Shown here piece by piece: positions 417 to 27,542 of a DNA stretch of 27,542 nt. The DNA is from a virus (Duplodnaviria; Heunggongvirae; Uroviricota; Caudoviricetes). Each line of letters begins with the position of its first letter. Positions within the stretch are counted from its first letter, which is position 1. Where the stretch lies: the IMG/VR virus record IMGVR_UViG_2663762992_000005, one strand, 5' to 3'. A program made the translations under genes and the position numbers. The notes beneath the pieces are model-generated. The model had not been told where the DNA came from, did no database searches, and saw nothing but the letters and a program-made list of their open reading frames with translations.

Positions 417-761
417 TTAAATCACGACCTGCTCAAACCTGCATGAGAAATCAGTGTACCCCCCCAGATTGCTGACATCCCATTCAGGGCATATCACTCT
501 GACCAGCCGGTTCACCAGCGGCGGTCGCCACAAAAAAGCCCGGTACCCTGCATGCGCATCCAGAAAATCGTTCAGGGCGCGAATCTCCCTTTCCCCCTGA
601 ACCCGGAATACCGGCGACCACGTTTTCAGTTGCGCATTCAGCCCTGCCGCCCTGCGCTGCGAATACCCGTCACCAAATCTCACCGTGACAACAGACGGCT
701 TTGATGCCATCTTCATCCCTTCTCTGGGCGACCAGTGAAATGTTTTCAGTTGCGCTGTCAT
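417..761 (-). CDS. Phage minor tail protein, lambda gpM-like
   Basis: 114 aa; the motif VRFGDGYSQR and C-terminal FEQVV match my recollection of lambda M. ATG at 759-761 overlaps the tape-measure stop (ATGA). Confidence 0.75.
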   Translation of the reverse strand: MTAQLKTFHWSPREGMKMASKPSVVTVRFGDGYSQRRAAGLNAQLKTWSPVFRVQGEREIRALNDFLDAHAGYRAFLWRPPLVNRLVRVICPEWDVSNLGGYTDFSCRFEQVVI

Positions 762-22527: not shown

Positions 22528-23850
22528 TCACGCATGAGTTACCCCCTGCATGCTGTCGACAAGACCACGCGCAATTGTGATTATTTCGCTGGTGGACATT
22601 CGTTCCAGCCAGAGTTGATTGATGTTGGCTTTCAGCTTGTTCTGCTGTGATTCATCCAGCATGTCAGCACCATCCACCTGGTCGAATACAATTCCAACCT
22701 CCAGTGGCCATATACGGGACTCGGGAAGCTGATCGGCTACTGGTTTAGCTTTCTCACGGATGTGCATGCGGATCTGGCGAATATTGGACCAACTGGAAAC
22801 ATCCAGGCTTCCCATAGCTGCAATGAAATCAGTACTGTTCATGCCATATTCACCAGATGCTTCAAGGGCAACAGTACGAATACGTTCCGACATATCCAGG
22901 CGCGCAGCAGCGTCATCGAATTCAATCGACAACAGCCACTCATCCACACCGAGCAAAATACTCTCACGAATAAGCAGCTTCGCTTTGTCGATCGTTAATG
23001 GTGATACCTGAGTGAATTCCGGTGCTTCGACAGAATCCGCCGCCCAGGTATGCCCAAACTTCGATTCACTGAATGTGTATTCTTCTTTATCGCCGAACGC
23101 AGCTCTAACGCATGCCCACGCCTCAACACCGCTGATATCAAAAATATCTTTCTGGGTAAGTGGCAACTCTGCTTCTGGCTTGTCAGCTACAGGTGGTGTG
23201 GCGGTTGCTGGCTGAGGTTTGCTGGTGGCAAACTGTGCCAAAGCCATAAACGCGCGCCCTTTTGTTTCCAGTTCTGTGCGGTTGATATAGCTGAATCGCT
23301 CGCCACGCCATGACTTATCGAATACAGCTATGGCTCCGGAAAAAAACGCGCTGGTGGGCTTCTGTTTTTCGTCAGCAGGTACAAACCACACTGGCAGATC
23401 GAAACCAATGCGCCCGCGAATGAATACAATGTGATCGGCATCTTCCGGCCACCACGTTTCACTCGGCGCGGCTTTTATCAGGAATACATAGCGACCGCCC
23501 TTCTCGCGCTGGGTTGCTGCGTACTTCATGATGTGCGTCATACCAGTGATCGCCTGTTTCTCGTGGTACTGCGAGCGGCTATATGGAGGGTTGGCAAAAG
23601 CCGCGCCACCCAGTTCTGCCAGACGTTCAGACCAGTCCTGCGTCAGTGCGTTATCTTCGGCGGTGTACCATGCCGGGCATTTCGCGTTGTCGTCGTCAGC
23701 AAACAAGTCCAGAACTAATGGACCAAATAGCGCGTTGATACCCCAGAAAAGCAGATCCGGTGTCCGCCACTGATCGCCAACTTCTTTCAATTCGTGAGCT
23801 GGTTTTGAACGCAGTTCGGCCAGCGCGCGGCAGTATTTGTTTTCAATCAT
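22528..23850 (-). CDS. DNA N6-adenine methyltransferase fused to a C-terminal domain of unknown function
   Basis: The N-terminal third contains the NPPY catalytic motif (FANPPYS) and upstream conserved blocks like phage Dam-type methyltransferases; the C-terminal ~250 aa are unassigned. Start overlaps the replication-gene stop (ATGA). Confidence 0.6.
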   Translation of the reverse strand: MIENKYCRALAELRSKPAHELKEVGDQWRTPDLLFWGINALFGPLVLDLFADDDNAKCPAWYTAEDNALTQDWSERLAELGGAAFANPPYSRSQYHEKQAITGMTHIMKYAATQREKGGRYVFLIKAAPSETWWPEDADHIVFIRGRIGFDLPVWFVPADEKQKPTSAFFSGAIAVFDKSWRGERFSYINRTELETKGRAFMALAQFATSKPQPATATPPVADKPEAELPLTQKDIFDISGVEAWACVRAAFGDKEEYTFSESKFGHTWAADSVEAPEFTQVSPLTIDKAKLLIRESILLGVDEWLLSIEFDDAAARLDMSERIRTVALEASGEYGMNSTDFIAAMGSLDVSSWSNIRQIRMHIREKAKPVADQLPESRIWPLEVGIVFDQVDGADMLDESQQNKLKANINQLWLERMSTSEIITIARGLVDSMQGVTHA

Positions 23851-24779
23851 CCTCTGAATCCCTCTGGAATTTTGGTATCTACCGGGCCGAACTTCATCGG
23901 GTCATGTTTCTTCTCGCCCCAGCTTTCACGAGGGGGACGGCCTTTCTTATCCCAGCGGAGCCCGCTTTGCAGATAACCCTCAAATTTTTTCGGCCCAAAC
24001 AGAGTTTCAGGCCGCATGTACTGATACTGCGCGTCATTGCCGTTCCAGTGTTCATGCTTGAGGTCAATCACCAGCGTTAAGTCGCTGACGGTATAACCTT
24101 CACGCAGACGGGCACGTATGTTTTCCAGAGAGGTTTTAGATTTCTGGTACCGGGAGCCGCTTACCTGGTTCAAATGAGTTAAAACCAGGATGGCGTTATC
24201 AGTGATCAACACCTCAGGGTCTGGTTGCGGCGCAACCGGACAAGAGGGGTTAATGATCTGTTTGTGGTGATCTGAGTAATGATCTGTATAGAGAATAGGT
24301 TCCGCGACTTCGCGGTTAGGGTTCCGCGATTCTGCGTTTTCGGTTCCGTGATTCTGCGGAATAGGTTCCGCGACTTCGCGTTTCCCGTTCCGCGATTCTG
24401 CGGAATCCAGCGTTGCCGGGAATAAAACATTGATTAGCGCTTCGCCATTGATACGGTAATGCGTCTTTTTCGTGCCGTTTACCTGTCGCTGCGCCTTTTC
24501 AACAACCCCTGGTAGCCAGCGGGTACAAATCTTGTTTACCAGGCGCTGCACCTGATCTTCACTCACGCCGCGAATCTCTGCCGCAAGCTCGCTGTGCTCT
24601 TTATAAAACCAGCCATCATTCAGATCTGATTTACCAGACCAGAACACGAGCTGGTTTAGCACAGCGCCCAAAGCATGCGCCTGCTGATCGCCGGAGAAAT
24701 AATCGAGGTACGGGACCGGAATGGTGATGCTATTCCTTTGCCCCGACAGCGATTGAACGATTTCAAATATCTGGCTCAT
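23847..24779 (-). CDS. Replication initiation protein (O-like) with conserved phage C-terminal domain
   Basis: C-terminal segment LNQVSGSRYQKSKTSLENIRARLREGY...YMRPETLFGPKKFEGYLQ matches the conserved phage C-terminus found in replication proteins; the gene contains an iteron array. Confidence 0.65.
   Translation of the reverse strand: MSQIFEIVQSLSGQRNSITIPVPYLDYFSGDQQAHALGAVLNQLVFWSGKSDLNDGWFYKEHSELAAEIRGVSEDQVQRLVNKICTRWLPGVVEKAQRQVNGTKKTHYRINGEALINVLFPATLDSAESRNGKREVAEPIPQNHGTENAESRNPNREVAEPILYTDHYSDHHKQIINPSCPVAPQPDPEVLITDNAILVLTHLNQVSGSRYQKSKTSLENIRARLREGYTVSDLTLVIDLKHEHWNGNDAQYQYMRPETLFGPKKFEGYLQSGLRWDKKGRPPRESWGEKKHDPMKFGPVDTKIPEGFRG
24299..24403. repeat. Iteron array: five copies of a ~17-bp unit GTTCCGCGAYTYYGCGG at exact 22-bp spacing (putative origin of replication)
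   Basis: Copies begin at 24299, 24321, 24343, 24365 and 24387; each has partial dyad symmetry (TTCCGC...GCGGAA); located inside the O-like gene as in lambda ori. Confidence 0.6.
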
Positions 24780-24948
24780 GATCGTCCGTTATCTCCCTGA
24801 ACTTTCGCCTGAAATGCTCAAGTGGGCTGAAGCATTCGTGCGGGTAGCCATCACGCAGATAGATAACGCGCTGTGTTTCAGGTTCCCAGCGGATAACACG
24901 GACTGGCACTCCACGGTAGTCTTTGAACCTTCGGTTAAGTTCGCGCAC
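24763..24948 (-). CDS. Hypothetical small protein (61 aa)
   Basis: GTG start; 3' end overlaps the replication-gene start by 17 nt. Ribosome-binding site is poor. Confidence 0.3.
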   Translation of the reverse strand: MRELNRRFKDYRGVPVRVIRWEPETQRVIYLRDGYPHECFSPLEHFRRKFREITDDHEPDI

Positions 24949-25120
24949 AGGCGTTTTGCCCTCCGGTTGTAGACCCCCACAATTGAAACCGCCCTACTGT
25001 GGTTACACGGAACCCAGCGGTTTGATAATCTGCGTTCATACCGAAACAACGGAGTACCCGAAACAGGGATCATCCTGAGTTGCGGTAGACGGTTAAAAGC
25101 CGTTAAACTATTCATGCGGA

Positions 25121-25669
25121 TTATTTCTCCATACTCGAAGAGTTGTTCGCCAAGGCGCCCGGAGCTGCACACTCGCGGGCGTCACTCTTTTCTGGAAGGC
25201 AGTAAACACGGGCAATCAAATTCAGAAAGGTCATCAGAGTTACCCTGAACTGATATGCAATGTCGTTAAGGCTCTGCCACTCACCCTTATCAACAACCCC
25301 ATCGTCGATATACCAACGGTAAGCGTTGACCAGTTCTCCTAGACGCCCCACCAGCTCGGCCAGCTTTAAGCCAATTTCTTCGTTTTCGTCATCTGGCACC
25401 GCACCCGGAACGTGTATCCCGTTATCTGTTTGACGAGAAAACGCATCAGCTATGTAGCTGACACCGGCGGCTTTCTGTAACACCATCGCCCATCCCATAG
25501 GGAAGATCTGATCCCCGTCGACGCGAAGGCGGTTAAACAATGCGTTCTCTGTCACCCCCAACCATTCCGCCGCTTCGGCGTAGCCACCAGGCAGATCGGT
25601 AATCGTTTTTTTAATCGCTACCACCAGCCAGGCTGGCTGACGTTCGACTTTCCATTGCGGTTCGTTCAT
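25121..25669 (-). CDS. Putative early regulatory protein (CII/YdaT-like by position)
   Basis: 182 aa from the ATG at 25667-25669 (GGAG upstream); second gene downstream of cro. Family not verified. Confidence 0.4.
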   Translation of the reverse strand: MNEPQWKVERQPAWLVVAIKKTITDLPGGYAEAAEWLGVTENALFNRLRVDGDQIFPMGWAMVLQKAAGVSYIADAFSRQTDNGIHVPGAVPDDENEEIGLKLAELVGRLGELVNAYRWYIDDGVVDKGEWQSLNDIAYQFRVTLMTFLNLIARVYCLPEKSDARECAAPGALANNSSSMEK

Positions 25670-25754
25670 TACTGCAACTCCATTATTGGCGCCGAACTTC
25701 CTGACGGTGATAGCCTGCAAGCTCTCACACCAACAGAACCGAAGGAGGTTCGAC

Positions 25755-25991
25755 ATGTCTGTAAATTCACTGCCTTACGGCAAGTCTCCCGAAGAAGCCG
25801 CTCACGATCTGGCCATGAATCTTGTCTTGTCTGGTCACTTCAAAACATTCCAGAAGTCGCCAGAAGAGGTTTTTCAGTTGATCACCAATGCAGAACTGGT
25901 CTTCAGTGAGCTTTACCGAAACAAACTGAAGGAAATAGAGTCCGCCAGATCAAAAGAAACCGAAGAGCAATATCAACGTACGCAGTGCTAG
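25755..25991 (+). CDS. Hypothetical small protein (78 aa), antisense to the early operon
   Basis: ATG at 25755 preceded by AGGAGG at 5-6 nt spacing; exactly fills a gap that is non-coding on the minus strand. Confidence 0.45.
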   Translation: MSVNSLPYGKSPEEAAHDLAMNLVLSGHFKTFQKSPEEVFQLITNAELVFSELYRNKLKEIESARSKETEEQYQRTQC

Positions 25992-26233
25992 CCATGAACA
26001 AACGAAAGATAGAACGTTGAATAACCACGGGCGGCGCTTTCAACTGCCGCCTGTATTTCCTCCGCGGATCTCCCTCTAAGGATCATCTCGTTTATCAGCT
26101 CGCCAATAAGGGGAAGGACAATTGGCTGGAATGACATGTAAACCCGCATCTTTCCTTCGGAAATGGTTATTTGTCCTTCATCGCTTTTAGCGGTCACGCT
26201 GTTTGTATCTTTTGTCTCGCTGCTGTTACCCAC
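25988..26233 (-). CDS. Hypothetical protein (81 aa)
   Basis: GTG start at 26231-26233 preceded by GAGGAG at 6-nt spacing; first gene after cro. Confidence 0.5.
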   Translation of the reverse strand: MGNSSETKDTNSVTAKSDEGQITISEGKMRVYMSFQPIVLPLIGELINEMILRGRSAEEIQAAVESAARGYSTFYLSFVHG

Positions 26234-26262
26234 GGTTAACTCCTCTCTTTTGTGGTTGTTGA

Positions 26263-26505
26263 TTAAGCTGCTGAATCTGCAGACTTTTGGAAAACATCAG
26301 GACGCAGTCTTTCTTTTGGGATGCCAGTAACGCTCTCAATGTACTGAGATTGCTTTATTGGCGACCTTTTTTCTCTGTTGAGCCAGTTCCATACCTGTTG
26401 TTGTTTAACTTCCTTCCCGGAACTTGCAGTTAGTTTCCGGGCTAACTCAGACTGGCCACCAGCAGTTTCAATTGCCTCTGAAAGGGCTAACTGCTCAGGT
26501 GTCAT
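26263..26505 (-). CDS. cro: Cro-like / YdaS-family HTH regulator
   Basis: 80 aa from the ATG at 26503-26505 (AGGAG upstream); sequence GGQSELARKL...VWNWL...IP resembles Cro/YdaS HTH proteins; divergent from the repressor gene. Confidence 0.65.
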   Translation of the reverse strand: MTPEQLALSEAIETAGGQSELARKLTASSGKEVKQQQVWNWLNREKRSPIKQSQYIESVTGIPKERLRPDVFQKSADSAA

Positions 26506-26526
26506 AGTTTTTCTCCTGTGGTTTGA

Positions 26527-26645
26527 GGTAAAAGTTGTTGGCACCATTGATCATACAACCTAAACAACTTTTACCACAACTTTTAGGTGTTGGAAAGCTA
26601 AAACATAAAGTTGTAATCTCTCCTAATACAGGGGGTAAAGTTGTG
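26527..26645. promoter_or_regulatory. Operator/promoter region between cro and cI with five copies of the half-site TAAAGTTGT / ACAACTTTA
   Basis: Copies at 26529-26538 (+), 26564-26573 (-), 26577-26586 (-), 26606-26614 (+) and 26636-26644 (+); the first two form a 13-bp inverted repeat GGTAAAAGTTGTT...AACAACTTTTACC. Confidence 0.5.
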
Positions 26646-27329
26646 AATACACTTGCGGAACGACTAAAAATAGCTAGAGAGAAGAAAGGCATGAGCCAGG
26701 CTCAGTTAGCCGAGCTAATAGGCCTGTCTCAACAATCTGTGGCGAAAATTGAAAATGGAGATACGCTTCAACCTAGAAAGATCAAAGATATTGCGAAAGC
26801 TTTAGATGTATCCCAAAAATGGCTACAGCTCGGAATTGAGGAGAATGGCTCTATTTCTGATTTTGTAGTTGAGGAACTTGAAGAAGCAAAACTTGATCCT
26901 GAAGTATTTGCCAACATACCCGTTCTCGATGTTGAGTTCTCTGCTGGCAATGGATGTGAAGCCGAAATTGTGGAATCAGTTGTTGATTCGTTCCCTCTTC
27001 GTCGTTTCGATCTTAGAAAAGCTGGAGTCAGTCCTGCTAACGCAAGAATCGTAAAGATTTGGGGCAACAGCCTTTTGCCAGTATTGAATAATGGGGATCA
27101 TGTCGCGATTGACATGTCACAGTCGAAACCTATCAGAGATGGTGATTTATACGCTGTTAGAGATGGAGTTTTACTTCGAGTTAAAGTTCTTATCAATCAA
27201 CCAGATGGTGGTTTGATACTGCGGAGTTTCAACAAAGAAGAGTACCCGGATGAAGTACTCAACTTTGATGAAAGAAGAGCCAGAATACACGTTATTGGTC
27301 GCGTGTTCTGGTCTTCACGTTCATGGTAG
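26643..27329 (+). CDS. cI: CI-like repressor (N-terminal HTH, C-terminal S24 LexA-like peptidase domain)
   Basis: [26 protein letters not shown] preceded by helix 1; C-terminal domain with GNSLLP (Ser) and a downstream Lys as in LexA/CI autocleavage domains. Probable GTG start at 26643 with GGGGG 7 nt upstream. Confidence 0.8.
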
Positions 27330-27542
27330 AGCGTGAAAAAGCATTTCTTCTGAAATGATTTTTAACTTAGCCCCTTCATCATCTCTATATGAGACTGCTT
27401 TTTCTATTTTCGACGGAGACAGGATCCAGCCCAGCGCACCGAACACCGCCGTCAGCCCCAGCACAATGCCGATACCCGGAAGAATGTATTTGCTGACACC
27501 AGCACCGGTCAGGCTGTTGGTTAAGGTATAGAGAACCGCGTC
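27321..27542 (-). CDS. Partial ORF, C-terminal end of a membrane protein convergent with cI (start lies beyond window end)
   Basis: Minus-strand frame open from the window end to TGA at 27321-27323; hand translation ends ...[55 protein letters not shown], including a TM-like segment. Confidence 0.35.

Follow-up and report, generated by a model that had tools for sequence, protein, structure and literature searches.

Does the repeat-rich segment inside the replication initiator gene of a lambda-like prophage serve as its replication origin, and could such an origin respond to adenine methylation? These questions were raised by a stretch of 27,542 nucleotides of caudoviricete DNA (IMG/VR record IMGVR_UViG_2663762992_000005), the whole of which is hereafter called the window. 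An initial annotation, made from the letters alone, had proposed that five iterons within an O-like initiator gene, followed by three GATCTG repeats and an adenine methyltransferase gene, form an origin resembling that of phage λ (oriλ). From sequence comparison we put the probability at roughly 80% that positions 24219-24402 are the replication origin of a lambda-like prophage, situated inside its own initiator gene and composed of iterons, a GATC-bearing segment, and a palindrome. The element is a lambdoid prophage, probably of Enterobacter. We read its origin as an oriλ-type origin with an oriC-like GATC-bearing unwinding element, and hence as a variant of a known origin type. The coordinates of all features are collected in Table 1.

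Five iterons with an exact 22-bp period lie within the initiator gene

The iteron units start at 24293, 24315, 24337, 24359, and 24381 on the plus strand, and their core, read in gene orientation, is CCGCRRARTCRCGG followed by AAC. Two subtypes alternate, giving a 44-bp super-period. Self-match at lag 22 was 68% at 24293 (z = 8.3), compared with 43% for the runner-up anywhere in the window, and no comparable second repeat array was found elsewhere in the window. Partial dyad symmetry was evident by direct reading, as TTCCGC-N6-GCGGAA in units 3 and 5 and as CCGCGA-CT-TCGCGG in units 1 and 4. Thus, the proposed array of five partly palindromic iterons at an exact 22-bp period inside the initiator gene was borne out, and it is unique in the window. 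The units fall on codons ~125-162 of the initiator open reading frame (ORF). Successive 22-bp units are translated in three frames, and only a 66-bp (22-aa) super-unit is in frame; therefore, the repeat cannot be a peptide repeat.

The initiator has a single Pfam match, Phg_2220_C (PF09524), at residues 199-271, a family that a published HHpred analysis assigns to the C terminus of λ O (PMC5509034). Its PHROG matches are named "replication initiation O-like," "replication initiation protein," and "DnaD-like helicase loader." AlphaFold2, run with a 17-sequence alignment, predicted a winged-helix N-terminal domain (N-domain) at residues ~20-120, a linker at 123-182 with pLDDT below 50, and a helical C-terminal domain (C-domain) at 188-279. 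The predicted disordered linker coincides exactly with the stretch for which the iterons, GATC units, and palindrome code. Foldseek searches with the N-domain returned generic winged-helix regulators only (E > 0.04), sequence homology searches of the N-domain against solved structures found nothing, and DnaD_N matched weakly in 3 of 15 members of the N-domain family. The iterons would be bound by dimers of this winged-helix domain. The closest protein relatives (97% identity) come from the Enterobacter cloacae complex, and the whole initiator gene was found in only four E. coli genomes, at 92.5% identity.

GATC-bearing repeats and a GC-rich palindrome adjoin the iterons

Downstream of the iterons in gene orientation, the three predicted GATC sites were found at 24255, 24269, and 24281, each within TGATCTG, a motif with no further occurrence in the window. 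Their spacings are 14 and 12 bp, so that all three lie within about three helical turns. The units read GATCTGTTTGTGGT, GATCTGAGTAAT, and GATCTGTATAGAG on the plus strand, where they begin 5'-GATCT and point towards the iterons, and contain ACAGATC in gene orientation; TAATGATCTGT was counted twice. The segment is indeed more AT-rich, as had been noted, with a GC content of 37.5-40% versus 55-58% over the iterons. Taken as 44 nt, it has 37% GC and an A-rich gene strand with only 7% G.

At least one GATC triplet within 30 bp appeared in 48% of random placements over the window, while the chance of a triplet in a prespecified 45-bp stretch was P ~9e-4. Given the former figure, within-window statistics support the iterons but, taken alone, neither support the GATC cluster nor exclude chance; what truly speaks for the GATC part is that relatives conserve it. 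A chance cluster was rejected on the grounds of conservation across ~115 loci. A second GATC triplet occurs at 391, 400, and 412, in the intergenic AT-rich stretch ATATATCGATCGATAAGATCGATTCTTCGATCTTTAAAT just 3' of the ORF 417..761 (minus strand), with repeated GATCGAT and TCGATC motifs (380-420).

We also looked for other signals. The integration host factor (IHF) consensus WATCAANNNNTTR had no match in the GATC units by eye, no DnaA box (TTWTNCACA) lies within 10 kb of the origin, no known RNA family of the Rfam type matched across 23000-27542 at E <= 1, and a promoter and terminator scan gave nothing meaningful within the origin.

The palindrome lies directly beyond the GATC repeats and would fold as a hairpin in single-stranded DNA (z = -2.6). 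Its position is that of the palindrome adjoining the AT-rich region of λ (NC_001416), in which four iterons are followed by a 38-bp AT-rich tract and then by tcgtcagagaattctggcgaatcctctgac. Relatives carrying a λ-type C terminus, among them loci from Sodalis, Acerihabitans, Rosenbergiella, Morganella, Proteus, and Providencia and Providencia phage PSTRCR_117lys, have tcgtcNgagaattctggcgaatcc..gac right after the GATC units, a near match to the λ sequence (for example, tcgtcggagaattctggcgaatcccccgac). This near-λ palindrome sequence makes the GATC units positionally equivalent to the AT-rich unwinding region of λ. A near copy of tcgtcagagaattctggcgaatcctctgac just after the GATC units was recorded at loci L010, L012, L019, L022-L028, and L043. 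The palindrome of the window travels with the C-terminal Phg_2220_C module, not with the iteron module, and is common to loci with quite different iterons, namely those of the LLS type described below. Its sharing points to a conserved function or to a favored recombination junction.

The arrangement is conserved and the GATC units are selected at the DNA level

To describe the family, loci with related N-domains were collected, 35 from a genome-contig scan and 80 from a viral-contig scan, giving 115. Their hosts or sources include Enterobacter, Citrobacter, Serratia, Proteus, Providencia, Morganella, Erwinia, Vibrio, and Algicola, among others. Most of these ~115 relatives have about five 22-bp repeats over the same codons (gene nt ~370-490), then a G-poor, A-rich segment with two or three ACAGATC units, and then a GC-rich palindrome. 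Among 52 distinct variants, a set that leaves out the GATC-free type of phage mEp390 and locus L009, the segment carries three GATC sites in 32, two in 16, four in 2, one in 1, and none in 1, most commonly at 12+14-bp spacing, and its consensus is CTCTATACAGATCnnnACnCAGATCnnnACnnACAGATC. It averages 32% GC versus 53.5% for the iterons; its gene strand is 46% A and 8% G, with about one G on average outside the GATCs.

Codon usage was then compared in a 33-locus codon alignment. Third-codon-position conservation rose from 0.53 in the N-domain to 0.70 in the iterons and 0.80 in the GATC units, and at conserved residues the major codon had a share of 0.92 over the GATC units but of 0.57 over the N-domain. 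The Thr165 codon was ACA in all 29 sequences. The residue after Asp166 is His, Gln, Leu, or Pro, which are chemically unrelated, and yet 29 of 32 codons at this position start with C, which argues for selection on the C of GATC and not on the amino acid. The third GATC, moreover, is read in another frame (caG ATC). These data indicate selection on the GATC sites as DNA.

The iterons covary with the N-domain. The outer TTC..GAA and a GAATGGAAA-like spacer are constant across lineages, and the inner arms change in a compensatory manner: CCGC..GCGG, CGGC..GCCG, GGCA..TGCC, GGCT..AGCC, or CGTC..GACG, depending on the lineage. One would expect such arms of sites that are read by a dimeric protein with co-evolving specificity.

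The replication module has also been exchanged as a block. The C-terminal half of the window gene (23847-24251) is 88% identical to that of E. coli phages LLS, Eeyore, and Flotzy, and this homology ends just before the GATC units; the N-domain of these phages is of the HTH_36 type, and their iterons differ, having a 15-bp period (TCTGAYGCNTCAAAA). Conversely, Citrobacter proteins are ~95% identical over the N-domain, iterons, and GATC units and have a C terminus of λ O type. Exchange breakpoints therefore flank the block of N-domain, iterons, and GATC units on both sides, and the iterons move with the N-domain.

A second, independent origin class, of LLS type (loci L002, L003, and L124-L203), was recognized in the course of this comparison. 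It combines the HTH_36-type N-domain with four to eight copies of the 15-bp iteron at gene nt ~300-460, followed by GGGGATCCGTCAGTAAA...GATCCATCAG and then by the palindrome and C-terminal module that the window also has. Between its iterons and palindrome, 66 of 69 distinct sequences have two GATC sites, 24 bp apart, in a GATCCRTCAG repeat.

Iteron number varies in the family as well. Locus L045 (IMGVR_UViG_3300029184_000060), with an N-domain identical to that of the window, shows a frame-preserving loss of exactly three iterons (66 bp) at about gene nt 420. Together with loci L017 and L033, it has only two iterons, those adjoining the GATC units. Since 22 is not a multiple of 3, such copy-number variants keep the frame, and changes in iteron number are constrained by the overlapping coding sequence. 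These two-iteron variants parallel λ, for which the two AT-proximal iterons suffice in vitro (PMC7466680).

A very distant relative is orf16 of Staphylococcus phage phiMR11 (locus L042), with an N-domain ~31% identical and a C-domain of Phg_2220_C type. At 1815-1945, it has 23-bp iterons with a TTCTTAAGAA palindrome and a GAATGGAAA spacer resembling the enterobacterial ones, and beyond them GATC-free ACAGAG units at 12-nt intervals. The layout of the origin appears to be older than the split of Firmicutes and Proteobacteria phages.

The locus compared with known origins

The likeness to oriλ that had been suggested holds in several respects. Both origins lie centrally in the initiator gene, where it encodes the linker that joins the DNA-binding N-domain to the C-terminal domain; both have dyad-symmetric repeats of about 18-19 bp, roughly two helical turns apart, next to these an AT-richer segment with strand asymmetry, and then a palindrome. 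Both belong to an early operon of pR type after cro-like and cII-like genes, and in both iteron specificity travels with the N-domain, as the covariation with initiator lineage described above illustrates. The relatives with a λ-type C terminus resemble λ further in having a near-λ palindrome sequence and a P gene. For comparison, oriλ consists of four 18-bp iterons and a 38-bp high-AT sequence (PMC3349717), and the AT-rich region is strongly strand-asymmetric (PMC5043065), its gene strand being 62% A by our count. In contrast, the window has five iterons of a sequence unrelated to those of λ, an N-domain without detectable similarity to λ O, and no P-type helicase loader, and it has GATC-containing 12-14-mers where the AT-rich region of λ is oligo-A-like and without GATC. 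The origins of Stx phages 933W and P27 are further lambdoid comparators.

The GATC segment itself is reminiscent of oriC. Like the oriC 13-mers (GATCTATTTATTT, GATCTGTTCTATT, and GATCTCTTATTAG), which precede DnaA box R1 in the polarity seen in the window, it consists of three tandem repeats, each beginning 5'-GATCT, that adjoin and read towards the initiator sites. The GATCs are Dam sites in both cases, and the oriC region is a known target of SeqA and the first part to open; methylation of the 13-mer adenine sites is expected to favor strand separation (PMC5043065). Binding of SeqA to the 13-mer region of oriC and to the core of the P1 origin is methylation-specific according to Brendler et al. 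(1995; cited in PMC4081077). However, the units of the window are 12-14 nt long, compared with 13 nt at 15-16-nt spacing in oriC; their tails are not T-rich, unlike the 13-mer consensus GATCTnTTnnTTT (PMC4081077); no DnaA boxes are nearby; the initiator is a phage winged-helix protein and not DnaA; and the element lies inside a coding sequence.

Iterons together with clustered, GATC-bearing short repeats are also known in gammaproteobacteria from oriR of plasmid P1 and oriII of Vibrio cholerae chromosome II, which need Dam methylation in order to replicate and are bound by SeqA when hemimethylated (PMC2865523; Brendler et al. 1995, cited in PMC4081077). In oriII, however, the GATC lies inside the initiator-binding 11/12-mers, whereas in the window it lies outside the 22-bp iterons, and GATC-free natural variants such as mEp390 exist for the window type. 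Finally, the Firmicutes initiators termed "DnaD-like" or "replisome organiser" (phiMR11 orf16, 80alpha family) have a distantly homologous N-domain and a Phg_2220_C-type C-domain; in phiMR11, iterons and 12-mers occupy the corresponding part of the gene, but its units are without GATC, and separate helicase-loader and DnaB-like helicase genes follow the initiator. Searches of open-access papers found no description of this origin family, of PF09524/TIGR02220 origins, or of GATC-bearing lambdoid unwinding elements, although an older description is possible.

Points against an oriλ-type, methylation-responsive origin

A number of observations weigh against this reading. Profile comparison of the N-domain alone with λ O (hhalign, 15-sequence profile) gave a probability of 0.8%, no Phage_rep_O Pfam match was obtained, and tblastn found no λ P homologue anywhere in the window. 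The term "O-like" used in the initial annotation is therefore apt for architecture and function but not for N-domain sequence homology or for the presence of a P partner. The putative unwinding segment is ~63% AT versus ~78% in λ. Its 12-nt period equals four codons, and the peptide T-D/E-x-x is kept even in phiMR11, so some protein-level constraint on the first two GATC units is possible. The cultured phage mEp390, together with locus L009, has the same 12-mer units as ACAGAC, ACAGAG, and CAGAC, with no GATC; locus L030 likewise has the units without GATC, and locus L119 has a single GATC. As to the methylase, an adenine methylase gene was present within the flank of 33 of 40 distinct GATC-rich variants versus none of 3 GATC-poor ones, leaving 7 of the 40 without one; Fisher's exact test, calculated by hand, gave ~0.01 for this association but ignores shared ancestry. 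Lambdoid phages in general, moreover, often have a methylase at this position.

Alternative explanations of the repeats

The alternative that fares best refines the oriλ-type reading and does not exclude it. The ACAGATC units may be a second class of specific initiator sites, for example for single-strand binding in the opened region, which has precedents in RK2 TrfA, F RepE, and DnaA, and GATC would then be a secondary overlay. The core yACAGA and its spacing are kept across all iteron specificity classes of the N-domain family; the same core recurs in phiMR11 as described above, and the initiator domain is the only component obviously common to these distant phages. Furthermore, plasmid initiators bind the single-stranded 13-mers of their unwinding elements sequence-specifically (PMC4081077), and the O proteins of λ and Stx phages bind single-stranded DNA of the AT-rich region (PMC7466680). 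However, at such distance the conserved core could equally reflect the linker peptide, with T-D/E every four residues, and the GATCCRTCAG at the same place in LLS-type origins means that the sequence is not universal. We consider this second class of sites possible but doubtful.

Alternatively, the array could be mainly an operator or titration site that serves autoregulation, silencing, or incompatibility, with the true origin elsewhere in the phage. Iterons of plasmids and of λ have further roles in controlling copy number and inhibiting replication, and plasmid-borne ITN3-4 of λ are needed for the inhibition phenotype (PMC3349717); our inspection covered 27.5 kb of the element. This explanation is improbable, since the tripartite order of iterons, AT-richer asymmetric segment, and palindrome matches oriλ position by position, the window holds no second comparable array, and the natural variants L045, L017, and L033 retain at least two iterons next to the GATC segment.

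Least probable is that the repeats are a by-product of a low-complexity linker peptide and the GATC triplet a coincidence of Asp-His and Gln-Ile coding: a 22-aa peptide repeat does exist (AESRNxxREVAEPI twice; YTDH/YSDH), as 66 bp or three iterons, the linker is predicted to be disordered, and a GATC triplet somewhere in the window has a chance of P ~0.48. Such an artefact was rejected because copies at a 22-bp period fall into three reading frames, dyad symmetry is meaningless for a peptide, and the arms differ compensatorily between lineages, with no restraint on the amino acids for which they code. Conservation of synonymous sites, moreover, exceeds that in the folded DNA-binding domain, and the codon after Asp166 keeps its first C irrespective of the residue, with the third GATC in the other frame.

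A possible role of GATC methylation

That the next gene encodes an adenine methyltransferase was confirmed by its Pfam match (Table 1), and its ATG overlaps the stop codon of the initiator within ATGA (23847-23850). The Dam domain occupies aa 19-199, and the ~240-aa tail behind it has no Pfam match and is variable or missing among relatives. The enzyme is 75% identical to its Stx2-phage homologue, and M.EcoVT2Dam of Stx2 phage VT2-Sa was reported to target GATC (PMC6602927). The methylase of the window would thus be of the same type and specificity, and it may methylate the GATC sites of the origin. The same Dam domain is found elsewhere under genes annotated "phosphoadenosine phosphosulfate reductase," and it also matches a PHROG family so named.

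The methylases downstream of the initiator belong to three unrelated families, namely PF05869 Dam, the D12 class (often fused to a C5 methylase), and N6_N4; this survey covered 3-6-kb flanks. At loci L006, L018, L055, L043, and others, the slot after the initiator holds a fusion of C5-cytosine and D12-class adenine methylases or an N6_N4 methylase. A strict linkage between GATC units and PF05869 Dam was rejected, as the PF05869 gene is present in 21 of the first 38 loci, the others having other methylases or none.

Because the GATC-free mEp390 is a cultured phage, GATC is not essential to this origin type. The hosts involved are all Dam-positive gammaproteobacteria, and Staphylococcus lacks Dam. 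The deep core yACAGA may be an initiator- or peptide-related feature on which GATC is an overlay in Dam-positive hosts. Dam-methylation-sensitive control of the origin, as first suggested, is plausible, and we assign GATC methylation a regulatory role only tentatively. A more specific proposal is that the GATC unwinding element is an epigenetic gate, in which hemimethylated copies would be sequestered by SeqA or poorly opened and the coupled orphan methylase would re-methylate them, licensing repeated lytic firing; we hold this to be unlikely in its full form. If true, it would provide a concrete function for phage-encoded Dam enzymes, the role of which is still poorly understood (PMC7556043).

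Genetic context of the origin

The initiator sits in a lambdoid early operon of the rightward type, as judged from gene order. On the minus strand, the order is cro-like, cII-like, DUF4222, initiator, Dam-family methylase, RusA, antirepressor, and a DUF968/HNH gene. In relatives L031, L113, L115, L116, and L120, P lies directly downstream of the initiator.

Table 1. Positions of the candidate origin and of neighboring genes in the window
Feature	Position	Strand	Description
Initiator gene	23847..24779	-	310 aa; winged-helix N-domain, predicted disordered linker, helical Phg_2220_C C-domain
Five iterons	24293-24402	- (gene strand)	exact 22-bp start-to-start spacing; core on the plus strand GTTCCGCGAYTYYGCG
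Putative DNA-unwinding element	24250..24292	-	three 12-14-nt direct repeats, one GATC each
GC-rich palindrome	24219..24241		GTCTGGTTGCG-C-CGCAACCGGAC; 11-bp arms, 91% complementary
Dam-family N6-adenine DNA methyltransferase	22528..23850	-	PF05869 Dam, E = 9.6e-45
cII-like gene	25121..25756	-	
cro-like gene	26263..26547	-	
cI-like repressor gene	26535..27329	+	HTH_3 and peptidase S24; divergent from the early operon

Two further observations were made upstream of the initiator. The ORF 24763..24948 (DUF4222, E = 2.9e-16) overlaps 24789..25172 (phrog_1170, E = 1.6e-15, full length) by ~160 nt in a different frame of the minus strand, which is either dual coding or a sign that one of the two families was built on miscalled ORFs. 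A weak sigma-70-like promoter match (9/12) lies at 25002-25029 on the plus strand, antisense to the early operon and between the cII-like and initiator genes, about where λ has pO/oop; it has no matching terminator, and the number of such matches was under the shuffle expectation.

A model of initiation and its implications

From this anatomy, we infer binding, unwinding, a methylation effect, and helicase recruitment as follows. Dimers of the initiator N-domain would bind the five dyad-symmetric iterons, whose 22-bp spacing is about two helical turns, and the resulting nucleoprotein complex would stress the adjoining GATC segment of ~45 bp, which would play the part of the λ AT-rich region. 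Transcription of the rightward operon (here the minus strand, through the cro-like, cII-like, and initiator genes) would pass through the origin, as in λ, and the C-terminal Phg_2220_C domain would recruit the host helicase machinery. The methylation state of the GATC sites could modulate opening, SeqA binding, or both, and the methylase gene, being translationally coupled to the initiator, could help to maintain full methylation of the origin while the phage replicates rapidly in lytic growth.

Origins of lambdoid prophages beyond the λ/Stx group are rarely annotated. The present analysis defines by sequence a widespread origin family, whose candidate loci in public collections of phages and genomes number several hundred and range from Enterobacterales to Vibrio and Algicola. 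In this family, the plain AT tract of λ is replaced by specific GATC-containing repeats reminiscent of the oriC 13-mers, and the lineages provide natural "compensatory mutation" data on iteron recognition. The iteron classes mark the recombination boundaries of the replication module, and they predict the replication specificity and incompatibility groups of co-resident prophages. If methylation matters, the orphan Dam methylases of phages would be linked to the control of replication initiation, with the GATC-free mEp390 as a natural control.

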